DNA of 64,000 bases, from positions 903 through 64,902 of the forward strand of contig CAYZCL010000154.1 in assembly GCA_964476595.1 (NCBI GenBank). Reading direction: 5' to 3'. The notes beneath the pieces are model-generated. The model saw only the letters and a program-made list of their open reading frames with translations, searched no databases and was not told the origin of the DNA. Positions 1,286-37,918 of the stretch are shown one piece after another. Numbering within the stretch: position 1 is the first letter of the stretch; every line of letters begins with the position of its first letter. A program made the position numbers and the translations under genes. This stretch comes from an uncultured Desulfobacteraceae bacterium (GTDB taxonomy: Bacteria; Desulfobacterota; Desulfobacteria; Desulfobacterales; JALSRD01).

Positions 1286-1301
1286 TGGTATGATTATTGC
1301 T
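1286..1301 (+). promoter_or_regulatory. Putative sigma-54 (-24/-12) promoter
   Basis: TGGTATGATTATTGCT matches TGGCACG-N4-TTGCW, with the invariant GG (1287-1288) and GC (1299-1300) at the canonical GG-N10-GC spacing. It lies about 115 nt upstream of the ATG at 1416. Confidence 0.55.
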
Positions 1302-1415
1302 TAAATGAGGTGATTCAGGATCTGTTCGCAACAAGAGGTGCCGGATCCGGCAGGAACAGGGAAAGCAGGAGAGGAGGCCGGTCCTCTTTCATTTTTTAAT
1401 ACCTGGAGGTAAGCC

Positions 1416-3500
1416 ATGGAAAAAGAAGTCTACTCGTTGTGTTTCATGTGTTCGGTCAGATGCCCGATCCGCGTGATCGCCAAAGACGGGCAGGTCAAGT
1501 GGATCGAAGGGAACCCGCACGTCGCCGGCATGGAGGGCAGCTTATGTCCCCGCGGGGCGGCCGGTATCAGCCTGCTTTACGACGATCAGCGGGTGCAGAC
1601 CCCCCTGATCCGGGTTGGTGAGCGCGGCTCCGGCCACTGGCGCAAGGCCAGCTGGGATGAGGCGCTGGACTATGTGGGCGACAAGCTCAAGAAGATCATC
1701 GACGAATACGGGGGACACGCCGTGGCGCTGGGCGAACGCACCCAGCTGGCCACCCACGTGAGCAAGACTTTTCTCAAGGCCATCGGCTCTCCCAACCACT
1801 TCACCCACGACGCCCTGTGCAAGGGCTCGGTCAACACCGCCTGCCGTTCCCTTTTCGGCTACACGGACGCCCAGATGGGCATCGACTATAAGAATTGCAA
1901 GCACATGGTGCTCTACGGCCGCAACCTGTTCGAGTCCGTGGCCGTCAAAGAGGTCAACAATATGATGTATGCGCTGGAACACGGCGCCAAGTTGACCTAC
2001 ATCGATCCGCGCGTGACGGTGACGGCCACCAAGGCCCACCGCTACTGGATGATCCGGCCCAACACCGATCTGGCTCTGAATTACGCCCTGATCCACGTCA
2101 TCCTCAAGGAACGTCTTTACGACGCCGCCTACGTGGACCGCTGGGTGACGGGCTTGTCGGAGCTGATCGAGTTCGTCAGCCCCTACACGCCGGAGTGGGC
2201 CGAGCAGATCACCGGCATCCCGGCCGGCGCCATCGTGGACTTCGCCCGCGAGGTCAGCCACGACAAACCCTCGGTGGTCTTTCACTTCGGCTACCGCGGC
2301 GCCAACCAGGTCGACGAGACCTACGTGCGCCGCTCCATCATGATCCTCAATTCGCTGATGGGCAGCGTCGAGGCCAAGGGCGGTTTCTTCTTCAAGAAGG
2401 GCCCCGGAGAAGAGGGCGGCAAGCCGGCCCGCAAACTCACCGAGCAGAAATTTCCCAAGATCGAAGTCCCGCGCTTCGACAAGGTCGGCACACCGGACTT
2501 TCCGCTGCCGGATCCCAACCACGGTGTGCCCTCCATGTTCACCCACTGCGTGCTCAACGAGGATCCCTATCCGCTCAAGGCGCTCATCGCCTACCGCTTC
2601 GATCCGCTGATGTCCATTCCGGACACCAACCTGACGCGCAAGGCCCTGGACGCCCTGGACCTGATCGTCTCCATCGAGATCAACTACAGCGACATCGCCT
2701 GGTACTCGGACGTCATCCTGCCCGAGTCCTGCTATCTGGAGCGCACCGACTCCGTCCAGCAGGCCAACGGCTTGAAGCCGCAGATGTTCCTGCGCCGCCA
2801 GGTGGTGCCGCCGCGCTACGACACCCGTGACGGTGCCGTCATCCTGAAGCAGATCGGCGAGCGCCTTGGCATTGGAGAGTACTTCCCTTATGAAAACATG
2901 GAAGACCTGGTGCGCTGGCAGCTTGAGGGCACCGGGTTCAAGCTGGAGGATTTCGATGCCAAGGGCTTCGTTGCCTACGGCAAGAAGCAGATCTTCTGGG
3001 ACCGCGCCGAAGGTATCAAGTTCAAGACACCGTCGGGCAAGATCGAATTCAAGTCCTCGCTGCTGGAAGAAGCCGGCTTTGAGTCTTTTCCAGCTTACGA
3101 GGAACCCAAATCACCGGGCAAGGGCCAGTTCCGTCTGGTGGTGGGGCGCTGCGCCCAGCACACCCACGTGTCGACGCAGAACAACCCCTATCTCAACGAC
3201 CTGGTCCCCGAAAACAGCCTGTGGATCAACGAAGACAAGGCGGCCGAACTGGGGATCTCCGACGGACAGATGGTGGAAATTTCCTCCAAGGCCGGCAGCG
3301 GCAAAATCCGCGCCCGGGTCACCGACCTGATCCACCCCGAGGCGGTCTTCATGCTGCATGGCTTCGGACACCAGGCCCAGAAGGCGGCGCGGTCTTACAA
3401 CAAGGGCCTCAGCGACGCTGTGCTGCAGGAGAGCCTGTACGACAAGATCGGCGGTAGCCCCTGCCTGCACGAGACTTTTGTAACGGTCAAGCCGGCCTGA
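1416..3500 (+). CDS. Cytoplasmic molybdopterin (Mo/W-bisPGD, MopB-family) oxidoreductase catalytic subunit, Psr/Phs-like, substrate unknown
   Basis: 694-aa ORF with a GGAGG RBS. The Fe-S motif CFMCSVRCPIRV sits directly at the N-terminus and there is no twin-arginine signal. The candidate metal-ligand region is SPNHFTHDALCKGS, where Cys is followed by Lys rather than the Sec/Cys-His dyad of formate dehydrogenases. Confidence 0.9.
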   Translation: MEKEVYSLCFMCSVRCPIRVIAKDGQVKWIEGNPHVAGMEGSLCPRGAAGISLLYDDQRVQTPLIRVGERGSGHWRKASWDEALDYVGDKLKKIIDEYGGHAVALGERTQLATHVSKTFLKAIGSPNHFTHDALCKGSVNTACRSLFGYTDAQMGIDYKNCKHMVLYGRNLFESVAVKEVNNMMYALEHGAKLTYIDPRVTVTATKAHRYWMIRPNTDLALNYALIHVILKERLYDAAYVDRWVTGLSELIEFVSPYTPEWAEQITGIPAGAIVDFAREVSHDKPSVVFHFGYRGANQVDETYVRRSIMILNSLMGSVEAKGGFFFKKGPGEEGGKPARKLTEQKFPKIEVPRFDKVGTPDFPLPDPNHGVPSMFTHCVLNEDPYPLKALIAYRFDPLMSIPDTNLTRKALDALDLIVSIEINYSDIAWYSDVILPESCYLERTDSVQQANGLKPQMFLRRQVVPPRYDTRDGAVILKQIGERLGIGEYFPYENMEDLVRWQLEGTGFKLEDFDAKGFVAYGKKQIFWDRAEGIKFKTPSGKIEFKSSLLEEAGFESFPAYEEPKSPGKGQFRLVVGRCAQHTHVSTQNNPYLNDLVPENSLWINEDKAAELGISDGQMVEISSKAGSGKIRARVTDLIHPEAVFMLHGFGHQAQKAARSYNKGLSDAVLQESLYDKIGGSPCLHETFVTVKPA

Positions 3501-3591
3501 TACCGGGAGTCAAGAAGAACACGCATTCTGCGGGGGCGGTGAGGCCGCAGGGCCGACCGCCCCGCCGAGCACACCATAGCGGAGGAAAATA

Positions 3592-4113
3592 ATGAGCAAG
3601 TATTTCATGCTGCAGGATCAGCAAAAGTGCATCGGGTGCCATTCCTGTGAAGTGCAGTGCCAGAGCAACAAGAACCTGCCGGTAGGCCCCAAGCTGTGCC
3701 AGGTCATCGAGGTGGGGCCCAAGTTCATCGACGGCAAACCCCGGGCCTCCTATATCTTCATGCCCTGCTTTCACTGTGAAAACCCCTGGTGCGTGGCGGC
3801 CTGTCCCACCGGCGCCATGCAGCGCCGCGAAAAGGACGGCATCGTCTTCGTCGACCAGAATCTGTGCGTGGGCTGCAAAACCTGCATCTCGGCCTGTCCC
3901 TGGGGTGCGCCGCAGTGGAATCCCGAGGCGGGCCGCGTGGTCAAGTGCGACTACTGCATGGACCGCATCGACGCCGGCCTCAAGCCGGCCTGCGTGACGG
4001 TCTGCCTGACCCACTGCCTGAACTTCGGCCAGACCGAGAGTCTGCCGTTCGTCAAGCGCGAACGCTACGCCAAGGCCATGGCCGCCAGCAAGGGCGCCGC
4101 GACGCTGGACTAG
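3592..4113 (+). CDS. 4x[4Fe-4S] ferredoxin-type electron-transfer subunit (DmsB/PsrB/HybA-like)
   Basis: 173 aa with four Cys groups: CIGCHSCEVQC, CFHCENPWCVAACP, CVGCKTCISACP and CDYCMDR...CVTVC. No signal peptide or TM. RBS GGAGGA. Confidence 0.9.
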   Translation: MSKYFMLQDQQKCIGCHSCEVQCQSNKNLPVGPKLCQVIEVGPKFIDGKPRASYIFMPCFHCENPWCVAACPTGAMQRREKDGIVFVDQNLCVGCKTCISACPWGAPQWNPEAGRVVKCDYCMDRIDAGLKPACVTVCLTHCLNFGQTESLPFVKRERYAKAMAASKGAATLD

Positions 4114-4251
4114 CGCCGGGATCTCATCGCCCGTGGCGTAACACGCCGTTCGGGGGGCGCCCCGCCCGAACCGAAGAGAACCTGACTGCTCACCGGGCGG
4201 CCGATACCGTTGCGGCCGCCCGCAAACCCCCAATGGGAAGGAAGATACGCC

Positions 4252-4704
4252 ATGGATGTCGCCGCCGTCGAAGCCATCCTGGAGAAGTACCCGCAAGTTC
4301 GGGGGAATCTGATCGGTATCCTGCACGAAGTGCAAAACCATTTCCACTACCTGCCTGAGGCTGAGCTGCGTTACATCTCCAAGCGCACCGGGATTCCGAT
4401 CACCCAGATCTACAGCATCGTCAACTTCTACAACCGTTTCAGCCTGACGCCCAAGGGACGCAACGAGGTGTGCGTGTGCCTGGGCACCGCCTGCCACGTC
4501 AACGGCGCCGAAAAGGTGCTCAACGCTATCGAGGAGAAGCTGCACATCAAACCCGGCGAGACCACCGACGACATGCGCTACAGCCTGGAAGAGGTTCGTT
4601 GCATCGGCGCCTGCAGCCTGGCGCCGGCCGTGGTCATCAACGAGGAAACCTACGGCCAGGTGACGCCCCGCCAGGTGGGCAAGATGCTCGATAAGTACAA
4701 GTAG
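4252..4704 (+). CDS. NuoE/HydC/HndA-like thioredoxin-fold [2Fe-2S] subunit
   Basis: I moved the start to ATG 4252 (RBS GGAAGGAAG). The tracked ORF begins at 4210. Motifs CVCLGTACH and CIGACSLAP are typical of the NuoE family. Confidence 0.9.
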   Translation: MDVAAVEAILEKYPQVRGNLIGILHEVQNHFHYLPEAELRYISKRTGIPITQIYSIVNFYNRFSLTPKGRNEVCVCLGTACHVNGAEKVLNAIEEKLHIKPGETTDDMRYSLEEVRCIGACSLAPAVVINEETYGQVTPRQVGKMLDKYK

Positions 4705-4773
4705 CGCTGCCGCCGATACCGGTAAAGTGCCGGACGGCGTATGGATCCTGCAGCAGTGACGGGGATGGATACC

Positions 4774-6576
4774 ATGAGTTCTGACAACAAGAAGGAAATC
4801 GTGATCTCGGTTTGCACGGGCACCGGCGGGGTGGCCGCCGGGGGCTACAAGGTGCTCGAGGCCTTCGAGCAGGCGCTGGCCGAAAGCGGCCTGTCGGCCA
4901 CCTACACGCCGCGCACCCACAAGGTCGGCTGCCGCGGCTTCTGCGCCAAGGACGTGCTGGTGGACGTGGCCGTGGACGGCGAGCTGCACACTTACCAGTA
5001 TGTGACGCCGGAACGGGCCCGCAAGATCGTTGAAGAGCACCTCCAGGGCGGCAAGCCCATCGAGAAGTGGCTGGTCAAGAAGGACTACCACCAGTTCCAC
5101 GACAAGCAGCAAAAACTGGTCCTGGCCAACTGCGGCCGCATCGATCCGGAGTCTATCGACGAGTACCTGGCCGCCGGAGGATACAAGGCGGCCGAAAAGG
5201 CGCTGGCCATGGACCCCGACGAAATCATCGAGATCATCAAGGCCTCTGGCCTGCGGGGCAGGGGCGGGGGCGGTTTTCCCACCGGTGTCAAGTGGCAGAG
5301 CTGCCGGCGGGCCAGGGGCGACATCAAGTACGTGCTGTGCAATGCCGACGAGGGCGACCCCGGTGCCTTCATGGACCGCTCCATCATCGAGGGCAATGCC
5401 CACAGCGTCATTGAGGGCATGATCATCGGCGCCCACGCCATCGGGGCCAACGAGGGTTACGTGTACATCCGCGCCGAGTACCCGCTGGCCGTCGACCGAC
5501 TCAAGCTGGCGCTGGAACAGGCGCGTGAGAAGAATTTCCTGGGCGAGAAGATCTTCGGCACCGATTTCAACTTCGACATCAGAGTGGTGCTGGGGGCAGG
5601 GGCATTCGTGTGCGGCGAGTCCACCGCCCTGATGACCTCCATCGAGGACAAGGCTGGCGAGCCGCGTCCCAAATACGTGCACACCACCGACCGCGGCCTC
5701 TGGGGTCGCCCCAGCAACCTGAACAACGTCGAGACCTGGGCCAACGTGCCGCTGATCATCGAGAAAGGCGCCGAGTGGTATGCCGCTATCGGCAGTGAAA
5801 AGAGCAAGGGCACCAAGATCTTCTCGCTGGTGGGCAAGATCAACAACACCGGCCTGGTGGAGGTGCCCATGGGCATCCCGCTGCGCGACATCATTTTCGG
5901 TATCGGCGGCGGCATCCCCAAGAAACGCGCCTTCAAGGCCGTGCAGACCGGCGGTCCCTCGGGCGGCTGCATTCCGGCCAGCCACTTGGACATGCCGGTG
6001 GATTACGAGAATCTCTCCGCGGCCGGTTCCATGATGGGGTCGGGCGGTATGATCGTCATGGACGAAGACACCTGCATGGTGGATGTGGCCAAGTACTTTC
6101 TGGATTTCTGCAAGAATGAAGGGTGCGGACAGTGTACGCCCTGCCGCGAAGGTGTGGCCCAGCTGGTACGCCTGCTCACCGAGATCACCGAAGGCAGGGG
6201 CACGCCGGAGCACATTCCCCTGATGGAGGAGCTGGCGGTCATGATCAAGGACGCTTCGCTGTGTGCCTTGGGCACCAGCGCCCCCAACCCGGTGCTGTCC
6301 ACCCTGCAGTACTTCCGTGAGGAGTATGAGGCTCACATCTACGAAAAGAGGTGCCCCGCGGCCGTGTGCAAGGCGCTCACTTCCTTTTACATCGACGAGG
6401 AGAAGTGCACCGGCTGCACCCTGTGCGCCCGCAACTGCCCTGCGGGCGCTATCTACGGTGAAAAAAAGGAACCCCATCACATCGACCAGGACAAGTGTGT
6501 CAAGTGCCGCGTGTGCTATGAAAACTGCAAGTTCGGTGCCGTGATGAAGGGACAGGGAGGCATGGCTCATGACTGA
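4774..6576 (+). CDS. NuoF/HydB/HndC-like NAD(H)- and FMN-binding Fe-S subunit
   Basis: Probable start is ATG 4774 (MSSDNKKEIV); the tracked ORF starts at 4741. Motifs: GLRGRGGGGFPTG, NADEGDPGAF and EGCGQCTPCREG. A C-terminal pair of ferredoxin motifs (CTGCTLCARNCP, CVKCRVCYENC) and an N-terminal thioredoxin-like extension are also present. This is the architecture of HydB-type (Bfu B) subunits rather than plain respiratory NuoF. Confidence 0.9.
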   Translation: MSSDNKKEIVISVCTGTGGVAAGGYKVLEAFEQALAESGLSATYTPRTHKVGCRGFCAKDVLVDVAVDGELHTYQYVTPERARKIVEEHLQGGKPIEKWLVKKDYHQFHDKQQKLVLANCGRIDPESIDEYLAAGGYKAAEKALAMDPDEIIEIIKASGLRGRGGGGFPTGVKWQSCRRARGDIKYVLCNADEGDPGAFMDRSIIEGNAHSVIEGMIIGAHAIGANEGYVYIRAEYPLAVDRLKLALEQAREKNFLGEKIFGTDFNFDIRVVLGAGAFVCGESTALMTSIEDKAGEPRPKYVHTTDRGLWGRPSNLNNVETWANVPLIIEKGAEWYAAIGSEKSKGTKIFSLVGKINNTGLVEVPMGIPLRDIIFGIGGGIPKKRAFKAVQTGGPSGGCIPASHLDMPVDYENLSAAGSMMGSGGMIVMDEDTCMVDVAKYFLDFCKNEGCGQCTPCREGVAQLVRLLTEITEGRGTPEHIPLMEELAVMIKDASLCALGTSAPNPVLSTLQYFREEYEAHIYEKRCPAAVCKALTSFYIDEEKCTGCTLCARNCPAGAIYGEKKEPHHIDQDKCVKCRVCYENCKFGAVMKGQGGMAHD

Positions 6577-7384
6577 AATGGTCAACCTGACGATCGATGG
6601 TCGAAAGATCCAGGCCCCGCCGGGGACCACGGTGCTGGAAGCCGCCCGCAAGGAGGGTATCTACATTCCCACGCTGTGCTATCATCCGGCGTTACCGCCC
6701 GAGGGAACCTGCCGGCTGTGCATCGTGGAGGTCAGCGGCCCGATCCGCCACAGTGTGCGCGTTTCCTGCATCCAGGAGGTCAAGGAGGGCTTGGTGGTGG
6801 AAACCGACACCGAGCGGCTGAACCACTCCAGGCGGCTGATCATCGAACTGCTGCTGGGGCGTTCGCCGGAAGCCAAGATTCTCCAGGACTTGGCCCAGCG
6901 TTACGGGGTGACCCGGAACCGCTTTGCCACCGGTGAGAACAATGACTGCATCCTCTGCGGCCGCTGCGTGCGTGTCTGCCGCGACGAGATTGGAGCGTAT
7001 GCGCTCTGTTTTGTCAACCGCGGCCCGGACCGCCGGTTGACTACCGACTTCGAACGTCTGTCTGAGTACTGTATCGGTTGCGGGTCGTGCGCCAACGTGT
7101 GCCCGACCGGCGCCATCCAGGTGGAGGACAAGGGGGACCAGCGCAAGATCTTTACCTGGGGTCAGGTCCTGGCGCGCTTCAAACTGGAGCGTTGCGAACA
7201 TTGCGGGACGCCTTTCGCCCCCAAGAAATACCTGGAACTGGTTAACAAACGTGCCTATCAGCCAAAGGGGTTGGAACTGGTGGAATACGTCTGCCCCGAA
7301 TGTTTCAAGAAGCGGGACCGGGTGCCGGAGGGCCGCAAGGCCGGTGCCTTGCGACAGGCCCTCAAGTGGTCGGTACCGCGGTAA
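6569..7384 (+). CDS. NuoG/HydA N-terminal-like [2Fe-2S]/[4Fe-4S] protein without a catalytic domain
   Basis: 271 aa. The N-terminus LTIDGRKIQAPPGTTVLEAARKEGIYIPTLCYHP...CRLCIVEV is a plant-type 2Fe-2S domain as in NuoG/HydA. It is followed by CILCGRCVRVC and CIGCGSCANVCP, and then CEHCG...CPEC. ATG 6569 overlaps the upstream stop codon (6574-6576), and GGGAGG lies 8 nt upstream. Confidence 0.85.
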   Translation: MTEMVNLTIDGRKIQAPPGTTVLEAARKEGIYIPTLCYHPALPPEGTCRLCIVEVSGPIRHSVRVSCIQEVKEGLVVETDTERLNHSRRLIIELLLGRSPEAKILQDLAQRYGVTRNRFATGENNDCILCGRCVRVCRDEIGAYALCFVNRGPDRRLTTDFERLSEYCIGCGSCANVCPTGAIQVEDKGDQRKIFTWGQVLARFKLERCEHCGTPFAPKKYLELVNKRAYQPKGLELVEYVCPECFKKRDRVPEGRKAGALRQALKWSVPR

Positions 7385-7432
7385 CCCGTACCGGGATCGC
7401 CGGTCAACCATTTCAATTTCTAGGAGTAGGAA

Positions 7433-9595
7433 ATGTCTGAAAAATGCCCGGTCAGCGAAACCATCGCCAGGCTCCAGGAGACCATCGAGTCCGGAGGGCT
7501 GAAGAATCCCCGATGCCGACGTATTGCCGAGGAAATTCTGAACCTGGTAGAGGACATCGCCTGGGGCGGCGCCAGTGATGACCATCTGCCAACGGTCCGC
7601 TCTCTGGTGCAGGAATTCGAAAAGGGCGCGCAGTCGACGGTCGGAACTGAGTTGTCCGCCTGGCTGCAGATGACCCTTGAGGAGAGCGAGGAGGTTTTCG
7701 CCAGCCACATCACCACACACAACTGCGCAACGGGAGATTGTGATAAACTCACCCCGGCGCCGTGCCAGATGGCATGCCCCGCGGGTATCGATGTACCTAC
7801 TTACGTAACGCTCATCGGCATGGGCAAAGACGCCGAGGCCATTGAGATCATCCGGCGCGACAATCCTTTCCCCTGGGTTTGCGGCCTGGTGTGCACCCGC
7901 CCGTGCGAATTTATGTGCGTACGCGGCCGCATCGATTCACCGGTATCCATCAAATTTCTGAAAGCCTTTGCCGCCGAACGGGCCCTGTCCGAGCACCGCT
8001 ACAAGAACCCGCCCAAGAAGCCTGACAAGGGGAAAAAGGTGTGCATCATCGGCGCGGGGCCGGGCGGTATGAGTGCGGCGTACTACCTCGCGCTCAAGGG
8101 ATACACTGTACGCGTCATCGAAGCCCTGCCCGTGGCGGGAGGTATGATCATGGTTGGCATTCCCCGTTACCGCCTGCCGCGGGAGGTGATCGATCGCGAG
8201 GTGGCCATGATCGAGGAATTGGGTGTCGAATTCGTATACAATACGCGTTTCGGTACCGACGTGACCATGGAGCAGCTCCGCGAGGAGGGGTTCGAGGCTT
8301 TCCTGTTTGCCATCGGCGCCCACAAGGCCTTCAAAATGGGCATCCCGGGCGAAAAAGACTACCCCCAGGTCATCGAGGCGATCGACCTGTTGCGGCGGGT
8401 GGCCCTCGGCGACCGGCACGTACCGGGCCGCCGGGCGGTGATTATCGGCGGTGGGAACGTGGCCATCGATGCCGCCCGTACCTGCCTGCGCCTGGGCTGC
8501 GAGGAGGTCACCATCGCCTACCGCCGGACCCGGCGCGAGATGCCGGCCGACGTGGAAGAAATCGAACAGGCCGAGGAAGAAGGCGTCAAATTCTCCTTTT
8601 TGACGATCCCCATTAAAGTCGAGGGCAAGGACGGGCGGGTCACCGCACTGCACTGCCACCGCGCCGAACTGGTGCGCCGCGAAGGCAGCAGCCGTATGTA
8701 CCCGGTACCCATCATGGGCAGCGATTTCTTCATGGAGACCGACGTCATTATCGGCGCCATCGGTCAACGGGTGGACAGCGAATGCATGCACGAACTGGAG
8801 GGGGTCAAGTGGACCCGGCGCAATACCATCGATGTCCACATGGCCAGCATGGAAACTTCCATGGAGGGCGTTTTCGCCGTGGGAGACGCCGTGACCGGGC
8901 CGGCCACCGTGATATCGGCCATCGGCGGGGGAAAACGTGCCGCAGAAGCCATTGATCGCTACCTGGAAGGCATCCCCCAGCCCAAGATGCCGCCGGTTCC
9001 CGTGCGGCGGGCGCGGGTGGAATTTCTAGAGGTGCCCGCAAGCACCAAGATGACCCTCAAACGCCCGGAGATGCCGCTGCTGAATCTGGACCGACGGCGC
9101 ACCACCTACCAGCAGGTGGAGCTGGGCTATTCGGAAAAGGACGTGCGCGACGAGGCCCTGCGTTGTCTGCGCTGCGATATCTGCAAGCGCTGTGGCGAGT
9201 GTGTCAAGGTCTGCCGCGACAAGATGGGCATCGACGCCCTGCAACTAGGCTACCTCGACTTCGACCATCCCGTGCAGACCGACTTCCGGCTCACCGAGGA
9301 GCGCTGCATCTGCTGCGGGGCCTGTGCCGAAAACTGCCCCAACGGCGCCATGCAGATCGAAGACCGCGACGGCGAACGCATCTTGTCCATCTGCGGCACG
9401 ATCCTGAACCGCCAGAAGCTGGTCTACTGCGAGGAGTGCGGCGCCGTCATGGGGCCGGCCAAGTATCTGGACTACATCAAGAAGCGCTTCCACACCGTGG
9501 GCCAGATCACGGCCGATCACATGGTCTGCGAGGCCTGTGCGCGCAAACGGACGGCGGCCCCCAATCTGGGCGGGCTGCCGCCGTCGAATATCTGA
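7433..9595 (+). CDS. GltD/SfrB-like NAD(P)H-dependent Fe-S flavoprotein with a C-terminal ferredoxin/zinc-ribbon module
   Basis: 720 aa. GltD-type Fe-S motifs CQMACPAGIDVPTYV and VCTRPCEFMC. Two dinucleotide folds: KVCIIGAGPGGMSAAYYLA and RRAVIIGGGNVAIDAAR. C-terminal motifs CLRCDICKRCGECVKVC, CICCGACAENCP and CEECG...CEAC. RBS AGGAGTAGGAA. Confidence 0.85.
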   Translation: MSEKCPVSETIARLQETIESGGLKNPRCRRIAEEILNLVEDIAWGGASDDHLPTVRSLVQEFEKGAQSTVGTELSAWLQMTLEESEEVFASHITTHNCATGDCDKLTPAPCQMACPAGIDVPTYVTLIGMGKDAEAIEIIRRDNPFPWVCGLVCTRPCEFMCVRGRIDSPVSIKFLKAFAAERALSEHRYKNPPKKPDKGKKVCIIGAGPGGMSAAYYLALKGYTVRVIEALPVAGGMIMVGIPRYRLPREVIDREVAMIEELGVEFVYNTRFGTDVTMEQLREEGFEAFLFAIGAHKAFKMGIPGEKDYPQVIEAIDLLRRVALGDRHVPGRRAVIIGGGNVAIDAARTCLRLGCEEVTIAYRRTRREMPADVEEIEQAEEEGVKFSFLTIPIKVEGKDGRVTALHCHRAELVRREGSSRMYPVPIMGSDFFMETDVIIGAIGQRVDSECMHELEGVKWTRRNTIDVHMASMETSMEGVFAVGDAVTGPATVISAIGGGKRAAEAIDRYLEGIPQPKMPPVPVRRARVEFLEVPASTKMTLKRPEMPLLNLDRRRTTYQQVELGYSEKDVRDEALRCLRCDICKRCGECVKVCRDKMGIDALQLGYLDFDHPVQTDFRLTEERCICCGACAENCPNGAMQIEDRDGERILSICGTILNRQKLVYCEECGAVMGPAKYLDYIKKRFHTVGQITADHMVCEACARKRTAAPNLGGLPPSNI

Positions 9596-9745
9596 CGGGC
9601 GGAGCCGTGCGGGCGCCGGTATCCCGGCCGGGGCCCGCCGCGCGTCGTTCTTTACGGCTGACTTTTTCATTGTGGAGAGGCCCCGTTTGGGTTAACATCC
9701 ACGACAGGCTTTGATGACTGCTGCAGAATGCAAGGGGGATCCGAA

Positions 9746-9958
9746 ATGGCATTTCGAAGAGGACAGCACGTAGAGATTTTCAGAAAATCCGACGACGAGG
9801 GCTGGGAGAGCTACATGGACGAGTTCATCGGCTGCCACGGGGTCATCACCGACCCGGACACGGCCATCAACGATCCCGACGCCCTGGTTGAGGTCAGCCT
9901 GGAGGATCGCGGAACCCACCGCTTCCCCCAGGACTGCCTGCGCCTGCTGGATTCCTGA
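9746..9958 (+). CDS. Small hypothetical protein (70 aa)
   Basis: ATG 9746 is preceded by GGGGGA. The sequence is MAFRRGQHVEIFRKSDDEGWESYMDEF... I recognise no family. Coding status rests only on the ORF, the RBS and the downstream hairpin. Confidence 0.45.
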   Translation: MAFRRGQHVEIFRKSDDEGWESYMDEFIGCHGVITDPDTAINDPDALVEVSLEDRGTHRFPQDCLRLLDS

Positions 9959-10198: not shown

Positions 10199-11125
10199 AT
10201 GGCAAAATGCATGCACCTGCTCGCGGCGCTGACGCTGCTGCTGACACTGGCCTGCAATCAGGAGGAGCCTCCCCTGAAGGTGGACCTGTCCCGCAGGGAA
10301 AAAACGGTGGTCGCACCGGACGCCGATGCTATCACTTACGCGTATCTGCCCCAGTATTCGCACACCGTTTCCTACCGGCGTCATCACCGGCTGGTGGCCT
10401 ACCTGGAACAGAAAACGGGACTCAAGATCCGCCAGATCTTTCCCGACACCTTCGACGAACACATGCAGATGGTGGGTCAGGGCGAGATCGATATCTCCTA
10501 TTCCAACCCGTTCGTCTACGTCAAGATCGCCCATCGTTACGGGGCGCGGGCCTTCTGCCGCATCGTGGAGGCCGACGGCCGCAGGGATTTCCGGGGCCAG
10601 ATCATCTGCCGCGCCGACAACGGCGCCATACGCGACATCGCCGACTGCAGGGGCAAACGCTGGATCGCGGTGGACCCCGGTTCGGCCGGGGGCTACCTCT
10701 ACCCCCTGGGACTGTTCATGGCCAACGGCATCATGCCCGCCGATTTCCGCGAGATCGCCTTTTCACCGGGACCCGGCGGCAAGCAGGAGAAGGTCGTGCT
10801 GGCCGTCTACGCCGGCAAATACGACATCGGCACCATCCGCGAGGGCACCCTGGCGGTGGTGCGCGACAAGGTGGACATCGACGAGATCCGGGTGGTGGCC
10901 AGCACTCCGCGCTATCCCGGGTGGGTGTATGCCGCGCGCGCGGGGCTGGCACCCGGTGTCGTCGAAAAGATCAAGAACGCCATGTGCGCCCTGGATTATG
11001 ACAAGGCGGCGGACCGCCGCATCCTGGCGGCCGCCAGCATGCGGGGCATCCTGCCGTGCGAAGACAGCGACTTCGATTCCGTGCGGACCCTGGCCGGGCG
11101 CGTGGGCATCGATCTCGATCGATAA
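10199..11125 (+). CDS. PhnD-like (phosphonate/phosphite ABC-type) periplasmic solute-binding lipoprotein
   Basis: Start set at ATG 10199 (MAKCMHLLAALTLLLTLAC, lipoprotein-like signal). The body (YLPQYSHTVSYRRHHRLVAYLEQKTGLKIRQIFPDTFDEHMQMVGQGEIDISYSNPFVY..., GSAGGYLYPLGLF) resembles PhnD-family binding proteins. No ABC permease or ATPase gene is adjacent. Confidence 0.8.
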   Translation: MAKCMHLLAALTLLLTLACNQEEPPLKVDLSRREKTVVAPDADAITYAYLPQYSHTVSYRRHHRLVAYLEQKTGLKIRQIFPDTFDEHMQMVGQGEIDISYSNPFVYVKIAHRYGARAFCRIVEADGRRDFRGQIICRADNGAIRDIADCRGKRWIAVDPGSAGGYLYPLGLFMANGIMPADFREIAFSPGPGGKQEKVVLAVYAGKYDIGTIREGTLAVVRDKVDIDEIRVVASTPRYPGWVYAARAGLAPGVVEKIKNAMCALDYDKAADRRILAAASMRGILPCEDSDFDSVRTLAGRVGIDLDR

Positions 11126-11127
11126 AT

Positions 11128-13188
11128 ATGAAACTCGGCTTCCGCGGTAAAATATACCTGGGCATCTTCTTCCTGCTGCTGGTCTTCGGCGTGGTGATCT
11201 TCTTTGTCGTCAGCTGGATCACGCGCGGGGCCCTGCTGGAGGAAAACCGCCGGCGCGGCGCCTCCATCGCGGTCAACCTGGCCGCCCGCGTGGCCGAACC
11301 ACTTCTGGCGGCCGACTTCCTGCGCATGAAGAACCTGGTCGATGAAACCGTGCGGCTCAGCGACGACATCTACTACGCCTTCGTGATGGATCGCGACGGC
11401 CGGGTGCTGGTCCACACCTTCAGCGGCGGCTTCCCGGTGGAACTCAAGGACGCCAACCGCCTGAAACCCGGCGAGAAAATCAGCGTGCGGCTGCTGGACA
11501 CCGGCAAGGTGAAAGTCAACGACTACGCCGTTCCGGTGCTCATCGCCGGCGACCGCTTCGGCACCGTGCGCGTCGGGTTGCTGCGCATCCGCATCGAGCA
11601 GGCCAGCGACCGTCTGCTGCTCAGCGTTTTTCTGGCCACCGGGTTCATCGTCATCCTGGCCGCTTTCGTGGGGGCCATGCTGGCGCGTCCGGTCACCCGC
11701 CGCATCCGCATCCTGCACGACTCCACCGAACAGGTGCTGCGTGGCAACCTGGACGTGCACACGGCGCCGCTGCTGAAAAAAAACTGCTGGCAGATCATGA
11801 ACTGCCGCAACGAGGCGTGTCCGGCCCACGGCGATCTGCGCCACCGCTGCTGGTACCTGGCCGGAACCATGTGCCCCTACTGCGTCGAGGGCGACTACGC
11901 CCGAAAGATCTCCAGCTGCCAGAAGTGCCCGGTCTACCGGCGCTGCTCGGGTGATGAAATCCAGTCTCTGGCCGAGAGCTTTGACTCCATGACGCTCTCG
12001 CTCAAGACCAACCTGACCGAGCTGCAGGAGGCCCAGAAACGGCTCCGGGAGCAGGGGCAGCTGCTGCGGACCATCCTGGACGCCACGCCCGATTTCGTGT
12101 GCCTTCAGGACCGCGATTCCGTGTACCTGGCGGCCAACAGGGCCTTCTGCCGCCTGGTGGGCCGCAGTGAAGCGGAGATCATCGGCCTCACCGGCCGGGA
12201 CCTGTACTCCCCCCGCCTGGCGGAGAAGTTCGCCGCCGAAGACCGCGAGATCATCCGCAGTGGCAAGACCCTGGTCAAGGAAAACCGCATTCGGCGCAAC
12301 GGCGAGCTGCGCTGGCTGCACGTCATGAAGATCCCGGTGCGCAACGCCGAGGGCCGCATCATCGGGCTGCTGTGCTCCAGCCGCGACATCACCGAGTTCA
12401 AGCGCGTCCAGCAGCAGCTGGTCCAGGCGCAGAAGATGGAGACCGTGGGGCAGCTGACGGCCGGCATCGCCCACGAGATCAACACGCCCCTGGGCATCAT
12501 CCTGGGCTATGCCCAGCTGCTGCTGGAGGATGTGCAGCCCGACAGCCAGATGCACGCCGATCTGGAGATCATCGAGCGGCAGGCCAAGATATGCCGCCGC
12601 ATCGTGGCCGACCTGCTGGCCTTCTCGCGGCACACCGAGAGCAGCACCGGACTGGTGGACATCAACCAGGCCGTCGAGGAGGTGGTGACGGTGCTGGAAC
12701 ACACCTTCGGCCTGGAGCGCATCACCATCCGACGGGATTACGGGCGGGACCTCCCGGCCGTGCGGGGCGACCGCGAAAAGATCAAGCAGGTGTTCATCAA
12801 CCTGCTCAACAACGCCCGCGACGCCATCGGCCAGGACGGTACCATTACCATCGTCACGCGCTTCGACCGTGAGGAAGGAAAGGTTCGCACCATCGTGGCC
12901 GACACAGGCGGCGGCATCGCGGCCGGGAACCTGGACCGCATCTTCGACCCCTTCTACACCACCAAGCCGGTGGACAAAGGGACCGGGCTGGGGCTGTCAG
13001 TCTCCTTCGGCATCATCAAGGAACACGGCGGCACCATCGAGGCCGAGAGCCCGCCTTCCAGAGCCACCCGGCAGGCGGCCGGCGTCGAGGCACGGGGAAC
13101 GGCCTTCATCATTCGGTTCCCGCCGGCGGCGCAGGATCGGCCGGACGGGTCGCATGAACAATCGGCAGTCGACGGCCGGGGCGGCTGA
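11128..13188 (+). CDS. Sensor histidine kinase (2 TM, extracytoplasmic sensor, HAMP with a Cys-rich insert, PAS, HisKA, HATPase)
   Basis: Start is ATG 11128, 2 nt after the upstream stop. TM helices IYLGIFFLLLVFGVVIFFVV and LLLSVFLATGFIVILAAFVGAML. PAS region LRTILDATPDFVCLQDRD. H-box AGIAHEINTPL. ATPase boxes NLLNNARDA, DTGGGI and GTGLGLS. Confidence 0.9.
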   Translation: MKLGFRGKIYLGIFFLLLVFGVVIFFVVSWITRGALLEENRRRGASIAVNLAARVAEPLLAADFLRMKNLVDETVRLSDDIYYAFVMDRDGRVLVHTFSGGFPVELKDANRLKPGEKISVRLLDTGKVKVNDYAVPVLIAGDRFGTVRVGLLRIRIEQASDRLLLSVFLATGFIVILAAFVGAMLARPVTRRIRILHDSTEQVLRGNLDVHTAPLLKKNCWQIMNCRNEACPAHGDLRHRCWYLAGTMCPYCVEGDYARKISSCQKCPVYRRCSGDEIQSLAESFDSMTLSLKTNLTELQEAQKRLREQGQLLRTILDATPDFVCLQDRDSVYLAANRAFCRLVGRSEAEIIGLTGRDLYSPRLAEKFAAEDREIIRSGKTLVKENRIRRNGELRWLHVMKIPVRNAEGRIIGLLCSSRDITEFKRVQQQLVQAQKMETVGQLTAGIAHEINTPLGIILGYAQLLLEDVQPDSQMHADLEIIERQAKICRRIVADLLAFSRHTESSTGLVDINQAVEEVVTVLEHTFGLERITIRRDYGRDLPAVRGDREKIKQVFINLLNNARDAIGQDGTITIVTRFDREEGKVRTIVADTGGGIAAGNLDRIFDPFYTTKPVDKGTGLGLSVSFGIIKEHGGTIEAESPPSRATRQAAGVEARGTAFIIRFPPAAQDRPDGSHEQSAVDGRGG

Positions 13189-13249
13189 AACACGCGCCCC
13201 GCGTTGTCACCTTTGAATCGTTTCGTGACATTTTCGGGAGTGATCTGAC

Positions 13250-13612
13250 ATGGCAAAAATTTTGGTCGTGGACGATGTGCAGGATGCGGTCAACCTGATC
13301 CGCCGCATCCTGGAGAAGAAGGGACATCAGGTGTTCGCCTTCACCGAGGAGGAGGATGCCCTCAACCACGCACGCCGCGAGGAGATGGACCTGGCGGTGC
13401 TGGACATCAAGCTCAAGAAGATGAGCGGCATCGAGGTGCTTGAGGAACTCAAGAAAATCACACCCACCATCCGGGCCATCATGCTCACCGGCTACCCCAC
13501 CATGGAAACCGCGCAGGAGTCTCTCAAACTGGGCGCCAACGAGTACTGCGTCAAGCCCATCGACAAGGAAGAGCTGGAGGAGAAGGTGGCCAAGGTGCTG
13601 GCCGAGGGATGA
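13250..13612 (+). CDS. Single-domain response regulator (receiver only)
   Basis: 120 aa with a CheY-like pattern: VVDD near the N-terminus, phospho-acceptor context LAVLDIKL, then IMLTG and CVKP. No output domain. Confidence 0.9.
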   Translation: MAKILVVDDVQDAVNLIRRILEKKGHQVFAFTEEEDALNHARREEMDLAVLDIKLKKMSGIEVLEELKKITPTIRAIMLTGYPTMETAQESLKLGANEYCVKPIDKEELEEKVAKVLAEG

Positions 13613-13633: not shown

Positions 13634-14707
13634 TCAAGGATGCGCCGCACAGGTGAGGTCGGCCAGGTAGTAGAAGTAGCGCTGCACGAAGCGGCCCGAA
13701 ACGACTTCCGCCAGGGGGAACACCAGGTCTTCACCACTCATGAAGCGGCCCGAAAAGGCCATGAAAACGTTGCGCGACAGCGTGGTGACCTTCTCCCCGA
13801 TGTCCAGGTGATCGACGAGGCCCGGCGGCGTGCCGTGCAGCCGGCACCGGATGGGGCGCACGTCGAAGAGCATGCAGCTTCCATTTTCGCTTAGGGGGCA
13901 GCGGATCTTCTTGCGGGCGTAGGCCTCGGCCAGCGGTTCCAGCCGGACTTTGCCGTCCCCGCCCATGTTGCGACGCAGGCCGTTGATGCGCTTGTATGCA
14001 TCGGCGGCCCTGTGGATGACTTCCGAGCGGCGGCGGGAATTGAGCGAGCGGTTCATGTTGTTGAGCAGGAAAATAGCCTCCATGAGCTGCAGCTCGAAGT
14101 AGTCGTAGCAGCAGTCCTCGTTTTCCTTTCCGCAGGCGGTCCGGGTGTCCGCAGGGGACGCTGCCGCCGCCCGGTCGATTTCCGAAAGCAGGAGGTCGAA
14201 CTCCTTGAAGTAGGCGCTCAGATCCACCACGCTGCGGCTCTCCAGCGAGGGTTCACGGATCTTGAGCTGGCCGCTCTTCTTGCCGTACTTCTTGAGCAGG
14301 CGCCACTGGCTGTAGTTGGTGGGCTTGGCGCGCGTTTTCTTCAGTTTCTTGGAGGCCACCTTCATACCCAGTCCGCGGCGGATGAGGTACGAAGTCACGA
14401 AAGTGCCTGTGCGGCCGATGCCGTGGCGGCAGTGCACCAGCACCTTCTTGCCCAGGTAGATGGCCTCGTCCAGCCACGCAAGGGCCTTTTCCATGTCTTC
14501 CATGTCCGGGGCGCATTCGTCGGGAATGGGGAGGTAGTAAACCTCGAACCCGCTCTTCTCCTCGATTTCGTGCAGGTCGCAGAACTCGCCACACAGGTTG
14601 ACGATGGCGTCGATGCCCTGGGCCTTGATGCGGTCCAGGTCGTCATAGGACATGGGGGCGTGCCCCACCGCCAGATCATCCGTTATCCAGGTCACTTCAT
14701 AAGCCAT
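13634..14707 (-). CDS. Dual-specificity (CX5R) phosphatase fused to a YkgJ/UPF0153-type Cys-rich metal-binding domain
   Basis: The N-terminal half carries the P-loop HCRHGIGRTG. The C-terminal half carries CGKENEDCC and CPLSENGSCMLFDVRPIRCRLHG, which are typical of the YkgJ Zn/Fe-chelating family. The gene starts 18 nt downstream of the dikinase-like gene on the same strand. Confidence 0.85.
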   Translation of the reverse strand: MAYEVTWITDDLAVGHAPMSYDDLDRIKAQGIDAIVNLCGEFCDLHEIEEKSGFEVYYLPIPDECAPDMEDMEKALAWLDEAIYLGKKVLVHCRHGIGRTGTFVTSYLIRRGLGMKVASKKLKKTRAKPTNYSQWRLLKKYGKKSGQLKIREPSLESRSVVDLSAYFKEFDLLLSEIDRAAAASPADTRTACGKENEDCCYDYFELQLMEAIFLLNNMNRSLNSRRRSEVIHRAADAYKRINGLRRNMGGDGKVRLEPLAEAYARKKIRCPLSENGSCMLFDVRPIRCRLHGTPPGLVDHLDIGEKVTTLSRNVFMAFSGRFMSGEDLVFPLAEVVSGRFVQRYFYYLADLTCAAHP

Positions 14708-14725
14708 GAAAGCCCCGTCCGCCTC

Positions 14726-19379: not shown

Positions 19380-19394
19380 GGGTTCACCTCTTTT

Positions 19395-22080: not shown

Positions 22081-22091
22081 CGGGATTCCTC

Positions 22092-37438: not shown

Positions 37439-37918
37439 ATGAAAGTCATTTTCGTGGAACTGGACCGTTGCCTGGCCTGCCGGAGCTGCGAGCGGGTGTG
37501 CTCCTTCCAGGAGACCGGCGGGTTCAAACGGGAAAATTCGAACATCTGGGTGCACGTGGACCTGGACCGGCGGTCTATTTTCACCATGACCTGTCTGCAG
37601 TGCGAAACCGCCATGTGCCTCGAAATCTGCCCGGTCGAAGCCATCCGGCGAGACCCCCGCACCCATGCCGTGGTGGTGGACGAAGCCCGCTGCGTGGGTT
37701 GCCGCATGTGTGTGCCGGCCTGCCCCTTCGGCAATATCCACTTCGAGAACCGGCGCCACGTGGCCGTCAAGTGCGACCTGTGCGGCGGCGACCCCCAGTG
37801 TGTCAGGAACTGCATGGCCGGTGCGCTGCACTACGCCGACATCAACGAACTGGCCGAAATCAAGCGCCGGCGCATGGACGGCCTGCTGGTGCAGCGCGAG
37901 GAGGGCCGTTCCCGGTGA
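37439..37918 (+). CDS. Multi-cluster [4Fe-4S] ferredoxin (HycB/DmsB-like)
   Basis: 159 aa. Cys motifs CLACRSCERVC, CLQCETAMCLEICP, CVGCRMCVPACP and CDLCGG..QCVRNC. Confidence 0.85.
   Translation: MKVIFVELDRCLACRSCERVCSFQETGGFKRENSNIWVHVDLDRRSIFTMTCLQCETAMCLEICPVEAIRRDPRTHAVVVDEARCVGCRMCVPACPFGNIHFENRRHVAVKCDLCGGDPQCVRNCMAGALHYADINELAEIKRRRMDGLLVQREEGRSR

Follow-up and report, generated by a model that had tools for sequence, protein, structure and literature searches.

Results

A predicted sigma-54-controlled operon of seven genes

Near the start of a 64,000-nucleotide stretch of DNA from an uncultured Desulfobacteraceae bacterium (GenBank assembly GCA_964476595.1, contig CAYZCL010000154.1, positions 903 to 64,902 of the forward strand; hereafter the window), a run of forward-strand genes encodes a molybdopterin oxidoreductase of the MopB type together with subunits resembling those of the electron-bifurcating Bfu enzymes and a GltD-like flavoprotein. 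The first gene (1416-3500) encodes the 694-residue MopB catalytic subunit, which groups with Phs/Psr enzymes and has no twin-arginine translocation (Tat) leader. It is followed by genes for a PsrB/DmsB-type four-cluster ferredoxin subunit (3592-4113; 173 residues; Pfam Fer4_11), a BfuC/NuoE/HydC-like [2Fe-2S] subunit (4252-4704; 150 residues), a BfuB/HydB/NfnB-like flavin mononucleotide (FMN) subunit (4741-6576; 611 residues, with alternative starts at 4765 or 4774), a minimal BfuA that resembles the N-terminal part of HydA/NuoG and has WorA as its best solved match (6569-7384; 271 residues), and a GltD/NfnL-type flavoprotein with flavin adenine dinucleotide (FAD), NADP(H) and [4Fe-4S] domains that matches NfnA and StnA (7433-9595; 720 residues). 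The original prediction, made on the letters of the window, had described these six same-strand genes, all of which are present at these positions with the domains attributed to them, but it overlooked a seventh gene at 9746-9958 (forward strand) for a conserved 70-residue SH3-like protein that is tied to the GltD-like gene. The open reading frame of the NuoE-like subunit formally opens at TTG 4210; ATG 4252 is its most likely start, in that the orthologs begin with MDV and the public gene call has the same 150 residues. The window matches contig JBPNTS010000039.1 of NCBI assembly GCA_054029475.1.

The gaps between the six genes from MopB to the GltD-like flavoprotein measure 91, about 138, 36, -8 and 48 nucleotides, and good ribosome-binding sites were found across the operon genes; these spacers and ribosome-binding sites fit a single operon. 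Internal terminator-like sites are no commoner than in shuffled sequence, and GC-rich stem-loops at 3501-3591, 4114-4251 and 9596-9700 have a stability not significantly above that of shuffled controls (z about -1.5 to -1.65). A sigma-54 -24/-12 promoter element on the forward strand (TGGTATGATTATTGCT, positions 1286-1301; GG-N10-GC with TTGCT) lies 130 nucleotides 5' of the MopB ATG. In most of 77 related loci the motif TGGTAYG-N4-TTGCT, or a variant of it, recurs 64-184 nucleotides upstream of the orthologous MopB start, and genes for an NtrC-type sigma-54 activator and a PAS histidine kinase are among the most conserved neighbours of the operon. Phylogenetic footprinting and a plausible cognate regulator thus support the sigma-54 promoter that had been proposed earlier and carry it beyond a chance match. 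We therefore read positions 1286-9958 as a sigma-54-controlled operon of seven intact genes, not six.

A catalytic subunit related to thiosulfate and polysulfide reductases

MopB contains the Pfam domains Molybdop_Fe4S4, Molybdopterin and Molydop_binding, opens directly at its Fe4S4 motif (MEKEVYSLCFMC) and aligns to the PhsA profile from profile position 41 onward. Twin-arginine (RR) leaders were confirmed in the Tat-bearing relatives P0128 and P0138, whereas MopB has none, in agreement with the earlier statement that it lacks a Tat signal. PhsA is the best-scoring curated model for MopB, and the best solved relative is Thermus PsrA (PDB 2vpw_A, E 1e-115, full length), with acetylene hydratase (2e7z, E 9e-61), ArrA and formate dehydrogenases giving far weaker solved matches.

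The original prediction had proposed a Cys-Lys pair at the metal site, and Cys135-Lys136 is indeed present and does not vary within the family. In the alignment with PsrA, Cys135 falls on the active-site cysteine, Cys173, which we take to be the molybdenum ligand. We compared five sites that are aligned with or next to PsrA His145 and Arg332, residues to which roles in PsrA are attributed in the PsrABC structure paper. At MopB positions 108, 131, 135, 293 and 294 the residues are R, H, C, Y and R; the corresponding residues are R, H, C, W and R in the PhsA representative P0138, and H, P, C, R and H in Thermus PsrA. MopB thus appears to be PhsA-like rather than PsrA-like, yet falls outside PhsABC by its score, its lack of a Tat leader and the lack of PhsC. 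The earlier view that its substrate cannot be read from the sequence holds in part: the five aligned sites point towards PhsA, and the substrate itself is a prediction to which we return below.

In an exhaustive search of 50%-identity representatives, the MopB family forms a cluster of its own. For the nearest clusters, at 45-49% identity, the match begins at the N-terminus of the cluster protein itself or close to it, so that they too appear to be Tat-less, as an alignment confirmed for P0122, while several relatives at 36-43% identity have 40-60 additional N-terminal residues. More than 120 protein-database clusters are 77-95% identical to MopB, nearly all of them 693-696 residues long. A genome scan with one genome per species yielded 473 related stretches, and among the best 80 of these MopB is approximately 75-96% identical and is found mostly in Desulfobacterales, with Desulfosarcina alkanivorans, D. 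widdelii, Desulfobacula, Desulfotignum, Desulfatibacillum and Desulfoferrobacter among the carriers and Desulfobacteraceae metagenome-assembled genomes as the closest relatives of the locus. This degree of conservation overturns the notion of an 'orphan' MopB in a unique system.

Several functional assignments could be rejected. A formate dehydrogenase is contradicted by a score of 251 bits on TIGR01591, against a cutoff of 666, and by Cys-Lys in place of the selenocysteine (Sec)/Cys-His dyad; acetylene hydratase by the gap between its match and that of PsrA; and a transhydroxylase by the pyrogallol enzyme, which matches weakly and through its small subunit. A classical respiratory Psr or Phs was rejected on the missing Tat leader and the missing NrfD/PsrC-type anchor gene, and the earlier statements that the enzyme is neither an obvious formate dehydrogenase nor a classical respiratory reductase are thereby upheld. 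Judging from its sequence, we regard MopB as a cytoplasmic, anchor-less member of the Phs/Psr group.

Bfu-type subunits and an NADP(H) flavoprotein

In the ferredoxin subunit, four Cys groups would bind four [4Fe-4S] clusters, and the protein matches both PDB 2vpw_B (E 1e-29) and WorS (9mqx_E, E 1e-19). The NuoE-like subunit belongs to the Pfam family 2Fe-2S_thioredx (PF01257, E 2e-51) and conserves the Cx4C...Cx3C pattern. The NuoF-like protein has PF01512, PF10589 and Fer4 families above their cutoffs, a 2x[4Fe-4S] domain at its C-terminus and a weak match to a thioredoxin-like domain at its N-terminus; the SLBB domain, at 23.2 bits, stays under its cutoff of 27. Along its full length the protein aligns with the NiFe-HydB of Acetomicrobium mobile (7t2r_B, E 2.5e-226), and its further solved matches are NfnB of Thermococcus sibiricus (9n5u_B), NfnB of C. 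saccharolyticus (9bov_B), Stn (8oh5_B) and WorB (9mqx_B, E 5e-208). By contrast, the non-bifurcating proteins Nqo1 and FdsB reach about half the score of the bifurcating BfuB chains. That the best solved matches are bifurcating HydB/NfnB chains bears out the claim that this is a NuoF-like subunit with the extra domains of HydB.

In the comparison with HydB and other Bfu B subunits that the original prediction had outlined, here with 7t2r_B and 9n5u_B, the NuoF-like protein keeps the B1 ligands, the B3/B4 clusters and all CxxCxxCxxxC motifs, and its B2-site set C/T/H/C/C (DEDTC, T, H, C, C) aligns with C438/C476/H525/C531/C536 of 7t2r_B. Threonine in place of C476 is found in about two thirds of BfuB sequences, and the B2-site histidine is near-universal in BfuB and absent from non-bifurcating homologs (PMC9304861). 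The AFM and GGPSG motifs, which are specific to bifurcating enzymes (PMC12018979), are both present. As described for the Bfu family (PMC9304861), BfuC and a BfuA with 2Fe-2S and 4Fe-4S domains are encoded adjacent to or overlapping the BfuB gene. Taken together, these features identify the NuoF-like subunit, at the level of sequence, as a genuine BfuB.

The 271-residue BfuA is laid out as a [2Fe-2S] domain, 2x[4Fe-4S], a CxxC...CxxC finger and a C-terminal tail (PF13510 and Fer4), and it shares both its best solved match (WorA, 9mqx_A, E 7e-50, residues 2-225) and its succession of motifs with WorA. In WorA, a minimal BfuA, clusters A1, A2 and A4 are accompanied by a Cys4 zinc finger that replaces A5 and by a C-terminal helix that docks on the polyferredoxin WorS (PMC12318220). 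The flavoprotein matches NfnA (9bov_A, E 6.5e-125, residues 99-574 and 610-671), StnA (8oh5_C) and 9n5u_A, and corresponds to the NADP(H)-binding NfnL-type domain of NfnA/StnA. Its last 130 residues form a second cluster-plus-finger module that is 41% identical to BfuA residues 127-253 and also matches the HydA/WorA cluster region, while its N-terminal 100 residues have no family match.

The gene for the 70-residue protein was found in 57 of the 80 loci at 59-85% identity, and at 94% in the metagenome locus L081. It directly follows the GltD-like gene in the loci examined, moves along with the relocated flavoprotein gene in L033 and is absent wherever the flavoprotein gene is absent. All 795 of its protein-database clusters are unnamed ('hypothetical') and none has a Pfam domain, so that a widespread accessory family without annotation is now defined. 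An alignment of 37 sequences contains 25 invariant positions, including HG, DPD, NDP, GTHR and PQDC, with Cys64 as the sole invariant cysteine. The predicted fold is an SH3-like barrel (AlphaFold2, predicted local distance difference test score 87.7), for which Foldseek returned fold-level similarity only (best E 8e-3), with PetP, the ferredoxin:thioredoxin reductase variable chain and FeoA among the hits. We read the protein as a probable small accessory subunit of the flavoprotein; a role for Cys64 in sulfur handling is speculation.

Modular gene content across related loci

Synteny was drawn from the best 80 loci, and modules were counted in the 47 loci whose sequence runs on for 7.5 kb or more downstream of MopB. 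The MopB and four-cluster ferredoxin genes are adjacent in all 80 except on truncated contigs, and they constitute the core. Most of the long loci (40 of 47) combine this core with the flavoprotein and lack NuoEF, six have the window type with both NuoEF and the flavoprotein, and one has the core with NuoEF only. Desulfosarcina alkanivorans, D. widdelii and Desulfobacula are among the carriers of the GltD-type locus. In other words, the NADPH module (flavoprotein plus 70-residue protein) occurs in 46 of the 47 and the Bfu cassette (NuoE, NuoF/BfuB and BfuA) in seven. This survey bears on the earlier proposal that NuoEF and BfuA are wired to MopB: the pairing of MopB with its ferredoxin is constant, but the cassette is accessory, and the constant partners of MopB are the ferredoxin and, usually, the GltD-like protein.

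The 2Fe-2S/4Fe-4S proteins of these loci fall into two paralog clades. Members of the BfuA-type clade, to which the window protein belongs, always adjoin NuoF, and members of the second clade accompany the flavoprotein, usually after a CBS-domain gene; some loci (L003, L034) carry both paralogs. A metagenome scan with the NuoF-like protein as query returned mostly generic BfuB genes at 54-64% identity, and two loci were informative: L081, at 98%, and L084 (metagenome contig Ga0209721_1000176, 16-8618). The latter encodes a Tat-less MopB that is just 49% identical to that of the window, in the gene order split TauE, PhnD-like binding protein, MopB, PsrB, CBS protein, NuoE, 644-residue NuoF and WorA-like BfuA, and has neither a GltD-like gene nor a 70-residue-protein gene. 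On the evidence of L084, two divergent lineages pair the Bfu cassette with a PhsAB-like core, and this pairing does not depend on the flavoprotein. Since the cassette and the flavoprotein each join the core independently, the pattern argues against two unrelated co-transcribed enzymes and for interchangeable electron-input modules on one core.

In Desulfosarcina alkanivorans (L043, 18121-21780), and in the matching regions of L020 and L046, the cluster adjoins Wood-Ljungdahl carbon monoxide dehydrogenase/acetyl-CoA synthase genes (AcsB, CdhD-like), an arrangement seen in that genus only.

Transporter, sensor and other genes in the window

Divergently upstream of the operon, the 5' part of a TauE/SafE membrane-protein gene occupies positions 1-783 of the reverse strand and is cut by the window edge. 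Running from 783 to 1, it codes for a signal peptide, a periplasmic domain of the DUF8269 family and a transporter of the TauE/SafE type (557 residues in the public gene call), and it is 37% identical by tblastn to the conserved neighbour family c3, which is present in 52 loci and in some of them shares an operon with MopB. In relatives, the TauE/SafE gene is accompanied by a second TauE (in some loci), three small membrane proteins, the PAS kinase and the sigma-54 activator, and in the Desulfobacula-like loci L033, L065, L077 and L079 the genes of this transporter cluster are co-oriented and contiguous with the enzyme genes. The small membrane proteins c7, c8 and c10 have no family match. No NrfD/PsrC-type gene occurs in the operon or among its conserved neighbours, where the membrane proteins are TauE/SafE and the small proteins; the earlier statement that no membrane anchor is present is right in this respect, but it had passed over the divergent membrane-protein gene.

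Downstream, at 10199-13612 on the forward strand, lie genes for a PhnD-like periplasmic binding protein, which is a lipoprotein, a histidine kinase of the sCache/PAS type and a stand-alone receiver; the Pfam domains are Phosphonate-bd, PAS, HisKA and Response_reg. They form a possible sensory unit of uncertain association with the operon. There is a weak match between the binding protein and the periplasmic sensor domain of TtrS, the tetrathionate kinase (E 2e-8, and 2e-11 with the copy from L084); the trio flanks the operon in L045 and L077, and in L084 the binding protein directly precedes MopB. The trio may be an oxyanion sensor for the system.

Further along the window, a dual-specificity phosphatase-like gene and an 851-residue PPDK_N/PEP-utilizer gene occupy 13634-17281 of the reverse strand; this pair (families c19 and c24) is also near the operon in L033, L065, L077 and L079, with c24 alone in L057. 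An apparent reductive pyrimidine catabolism cluster at 18138-23441, likewise on the reverse strand, comprises a PreT-type GltD-like protein, a PreA-type protein with DHO_dh and Fer4 domains, a dihydropyrimidinase-like amidohydrolase and a beta-ureidopropionase-like M20 peptidase. A second MopB of 838 residues, encoded at 37468-39984 on the forward strand, has an N-terminal ferredoxin-like extension of about 150 residues and shares only 29% identity with the first; its closest model is formate dehydrogenase alpha, on which its 306 bits stay under the cutoff.

Discussion

A candidate Bfu enzyme with a PhsAB-like module

In our best reading, the operon encodes a Type-2 Bfu enzyme whose third-substrate module would be a cytoplasmic PhsAB-like molybdoenzyme. 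We assign a probability of about 0.6 to a Bfu-coupled PhsAB-like complex, and to such a complex with thiosulfate reduction as its reaction we give an even chance at best. Its core would be the PhsAB-like pair, consisting of a Cys-ligated molybdenum/tungsten bis(pyranopterin guanine dinucleotide) (bis-PGD) subunit and the four-cluster ferredoxin, and two electron-input plugs would sit on this core: the NADP(H) flavoprotein module and a BfuCBA cassette that, in this lineage, was presumably inserted between the core and the NADPH module. BfuA and the BfuA-like C-terminal domain of the flavoprotein would both dock on the polyferredoxin subunit, as WorA does on WorS. NADH would react at the FMN of the BfuCBA core and ferredoxin at B3/B4, and the molybdenum site would form the mid-potential end of the Bfu wire.

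Thiosulfate would enter the cell through the co-encoded TauE/SafE-type transporter and undergo reductive cleavage into sulfite and sulfide, with the sulfite then reduced by DsrAB. The donors would differ by type of locus, with NADPH serving the common type, NADH plus reduced ferredoxin (by confurcation) the Bfu-only type, and either of these the window type, in which NADH, NADPH and ferredoxin could also be exchanged for one another as in an Nfn-Bfu/Stn transhydrogenase. Cleavage of thiosulfate to sulfite and sulfide has an E0' of about -402 mV, near that of H+/H2 (-414 mV); CO2/formate lies at about -430 mV and physiological NADPH at about -380 mV, while polysulfide lies at about -260 mV and tetrathionate, arsenate and selenite far more positive. 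The Bfu third-substrate couples H2, formate and NADPH are of low potential, and aldehydes are lower still. Because a ferredoxin-coupled Bfu core would be useful only if the third couple is low, thiosulfate cleavage alone fits among the substrates of this MopB group. Thiosulfate is favoured by this argument from potentials together with the PhsA-like residues and the TauE context.

Physiological parallels exist in related bacteria. When Dissulfuribacter thermophilus disproportionates thiosulfate, some of its largest protein increases are those of a PhsAB-like pair that lacks both a Tat leader and PhsC, and a TauE/SafE protein and its co-occurring membrane protein rise as well (PMC13490349). All six model Desulfobacteraceae use thiosulfate (PMC5109826), and the main texts of PMC5109826 and PMC11887813 make no mention of a molybdoenzyme or thiosulfate reductase. 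One may tentatively ask, although we hold it to be rather doubtful, whether the operon encodes the long-missing cytoplasmic thiosulfate reductase of complete-oxidising sulfate reducers, here in the form of a four-site Bfu enzyme (NADH, ferredoxin, NADPH and molybdenum/tungsten) in which flavin-based confurcation would power thiosulfate cleavage at its very low potential without a membrane or proton-motive force.

Relation to known systems

The original prediction had seen a likeness to Geobacter SfrAB. The closest solved precedent is instead the WorABC 'plug' of WorABCSL, together with Nfn-Bfu/Stn. In the Type-2 Bfu enzyme WorABCSL of Acetomicrobium mobile (9mqx, PMC12318220), BfuC, BfuB and a minimal BfuA feed a four-cluster polyferredoxin and then a pterin catalytic subunit, WorABC being plugged onto the polyferredoxin that leads to the pterin subunit (PMC12318220). 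This is the arrangement we propose here, with the differences that the catalytic subunit of WorABCSL is a tungsten enzyme of the aldehyde oxidoreductase (AOR) family whereas the window has a bis-PGD Phs/Psr MopB, and that the window has an extra NADP(H) flavoprotein and 70-residue protein as well as a B5 site with three cysteines. The Nfn-Bfu/StnABC enzymes (9bov, 9n5u, 8oh5; PMC11829005, PMC12018979) share the BfuBC core, the GltD/NfnL-type FAD, NADP(H) and 2x[4Fe-4S] domain, and a MopB-type module off the A-subunit clusters. NfnA/StnA, however, is a single polypeptide of about 960-1180 residues in which the Fdh-like MopB domain is a pterin-less, dead-end remnant, whereas in the window the A subunit is split (6569-7384 and 7433-9595), neither part has an Fdh-like domain, and a separate, apparently functional Phs/Psr-type MopB comes with its own ferredoxin.

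PhsABC and PsrABC (2vpw) resemble the window enzyme in catalytic family, Cys ligand and four-cluster B subunit, and PhsA shares the arginine, histidine, cysteine, aromatic residue and arginine at the five sites. Unlike them, the window enzyme has neither a Tat leader nor an NrfD-type quinol-oxidising anchor, is predicted to be cytoplasmic, and would take its electrons from NAD(P)H and ferredoxin rather than menaquinol. The Fdh-Bfu enzymes (HylABC-FdhF2, Hyt/Fdh) also couple a cytoplasmic MopB to NuoEF-type nucleotide modules, and the NADPH-linked MopB and GltD pairs Geobacter SfrAB and Moorella FdhAB presumably offer a further cytoplasmic likeness; in Fdh-Bfu, SfrAB and FdhAB, however, MopB is of the formate-dehydrogenase type (Sec/Cys-His) with fused NuoG-like N-termini. 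DsrL, which we understand to be a GltD/NfnB-type flavoprotein with a C-terminal ferredoxin domain that passes NAD(P)H electrons to a cytoplasmic sulfur enzyme, is in part comparable, but its partner is DsrAB.

Evidence against the proposal and competing explanations

Several observations weigh against the proposed enzyme. MopB scores 596.3 bits on the NCBIfam PhsA model (NF012032 equivalog), below the cutoff of 694; on the same model P0138, a bona fide PhsA by the NCBI rule, scores 998 bits, although MopB stays above the 480 bits of Thermus PsrA, which speaks for a Phs-like core. Its identity is low, at 34% to Thermus PsrA and 37% to P0138, and reaches 40-42% with the Tat-bearing near-threshold relatives P0125 and P0128, where Wells et al. 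2023 delimit the PsrA, PhsA and SrrA families by an identity of at least 40% among the members of each. MopB has family-specific residues, Glu107 and Lys136, which do not vary among its relatives in that family, and the nearest 50%-identity clusters are unnamed. The B5 site of the NuoF-like protein has three cysteines (C-x4-G, as CTGTGG, followed by C-x3-C) in 11 of the 11 orthologs examined. The window lacks the second HydAN'-type paralog and the CBS protein found in most relatives, and most relatives lack the Bfu cassette, which means that bifurcation is not intrinsic to this enzyme family. That the seven products form one soluble complex is deduced from gene order alone, and bifurcation or confurcation, docking mode, transport direction and substrate are likewise predictions. 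The classical role of TauE/SafE proteins is the export of sulfite or sulfonates, so a sulfite-linked reaction would suit the transporter equally well. The PhsAB-like pairs of the disproportionators Dissulfuribacter thermophilus and Desulfolithobacter dissulfuricans (PMC13490349, PMC9751629), which are likened here by description and not by sequence, are Tat-less, PhsC-less and from Desulfobacterota, share a TauE/SafE link (by proteomics there, by synteny here) and have likewise been proposed to cleave thiosulfate in the cytoplasm, but the relevant sections of both papers name no flavoprotein or Bfu electron donor for them. The Desulfolithobacter dissulfuricans pair is reported there to be similar to that of D. 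thermophilus and to be expressed (PMC9751629).

The alternative that survives best, although we consider it unlikely, keeps the architecture and changes the substrate or the direction, making the enzyme a polysulfide, persulfide or sulfane-sulfur reductase, a soluble sulfite dehydrogenase, or a tetrathionate, selenite or arsenate reductase. Psr, Phs, Srr and archaeal Sre are inseparable by sequence (PMC10100899, PMC12998232), and the MopB score under the PhsA cutoff, the family's own Glu107 and Lys136, the annotation of TauE/SafE as a sulfite exporter and the weak resemblance of the PhnD-like protein to the TtrS tetrathionate sensor domain all leave room for such a reading, as does the one invariant cysteine of the 70-residue protein, which could carry sulfane sulfur. 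Wor-Bfu, moreover, illustrates that electrons can enter a Bfu core from a donor of more negative potential than ferredoxin (PMC12318220). Yet the aligned active-site residues are like those of PhsA and unlike those of PsrA, and polysulfide, tetrathionate, arsenate and selenite are, on thermodynamic grounds, high-potential acceptors for which a ferredoxin-coupled cassette would be of no benefit, since NAD(P)H alone suffices. Sulfite oxidation by Soe-like chemistry, at about -516 mV, would reduce NAD(P)+ and ferredoxin. A sulfite-to-sulfate shunt would, however, be futile in a sulfate reducer, and SoeA belongs to a different MopB lineage, bSreA/SoeA (PMC10100899).

A second alternative dispenses with bifurcation, the NuoEF-like subunits being a plain NADH input, as in FdsABG and Hox, and the GltD-like protein an NADPH input, in an enzyme that would be an NAD(P)H:acceptor oxidoreductase. 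Non-bifurcating NuoEF homologs are common (PMC9304861), and most relatives operate with the GltD-like module alone, but non-bifurcating homologs are without B2-B5 (PMC9304861, PMC11829005), whereas the NuoF-like protein has the B3/B4 domain, the B2-site histidine and cysteines, AFM and GGPSG, and all its best solved matches are bifurcating. The missing B5 cysteine could be held in its favour, as deletion of the B5 domain in the T. kivui hydrogenase strongly cut bifurcation (as cited in PMC12018979). The original prediction had noticed this cysteine and suggested that the cluster might be absent; the loss is real, but it need not argue against bifurcation. In our alignment NfnB of Thermococcus sibiricus likewise has three cysteines in its B5 motifs, and that protein holds Zn at B5 and still bifurcates (PMC12018979), so the missing cysteine does not decide the matter. 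A clade-specific conserved histidine (RTHKVGC; N-terminus of the NuoF-like protein, window 4741-4950; orthologs L003-L065) lies three residues before the second B5 motif, so a 3Cys/1His cluster could be bound there, or else Zn in the manner of T. sibiricus NfnB. We regard the absence of bifurcation as quite improbable.

Least likely of all is a pair of merely co-transcribed enzymes, a split Nfn-Bfu/Stn transhydrogenase (NuoE, NuoF, BfuA, GltD-like and 70-residue proteins) and a PhsAB-like enzyme running on free ferredoxin: NuoE, NuoF, BfuA and the GltD-like protein do cover all NfnABC domains except the pterin-less Fdh-like one (PMC11829005), and NCBIfam PRK12814 spans the BfuA N-terminus and the GltD-like protein as though they were one split protein, but the GltD-like gene stays with MopB/PsrB in the 40 loci without NuoEF, where a transhydrogenase is impossible, the cassette accompanies MopB/PsrB without GltD in L065, L084 and apparently L009 and L010 (which have short downstream sequence), it is inserted between PsrB and the GltD-like gene, and WorA-type BfuA proteins are built for polyferredoxin docking.

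Significance of a Bfu-coupled PhsAB-like enzyme

The Bfu partners listed in PMC9304861 are hydrogenase, Fdh, Wor, Bam, Por, Codh, rubrerythrin, F420, Nfn, Nuo and Mbh plus 17 function-unknown clades, and that family survey makes no mention of polysulfide or thiosulfate enzymes. Among the papers listed by full-text literature searches, likewise, none describes Bfu or confurcation combined with a polysulfide or thiosulfate reductase. While the idea of a cytoplasmic PhsAB-like enzyme has already been published, its apparent wiring to an NfnA-like flavoprotein, a 70-residue protein and a WorA-type Bfu cassette was not found in the literature. With this locus the Bfu family would gain a further predicted class of third-substrate module, a molybdoenzyme of the Phs/Psr type. 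If the operon does encode a confurcating thiosulfate reductase of the kind considered doubtful above, this would be the first Bfu enzyme with an inorganic sulfur third substrate and the first with a non-formate bis-PGD molybdoenzyme, and it would show electron-input 'plugs', the NADPH module and the Bfu cassette, being swapped around one catalytic core. The related loci amount to a natural experiment, in that one core is paired with either the NADPH module or the Bfu cassette or the two together, and they suggest how Nfn-Bfu enzymes may be related to enzymes whose pterin module is functional.

Thiosulfate holds a central place among the intermediates of sulfur cycling in sediments, and in marine sediments Desulfobacteraceae are sulfate reducers of major importance (PMC11887813). 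The combination described here could explain intracellular thiosulfate reduction in these sulfate reducers. In Salmonella, thiosulfate cleavage with menaquinol is endergonic and needs the proton-motive force. A soluble enzyme running on NADPH, or on NADH plus ferredoxin, would represent a different bioenergetic solution, one in which the sulfite would pass straight to DsrAB.

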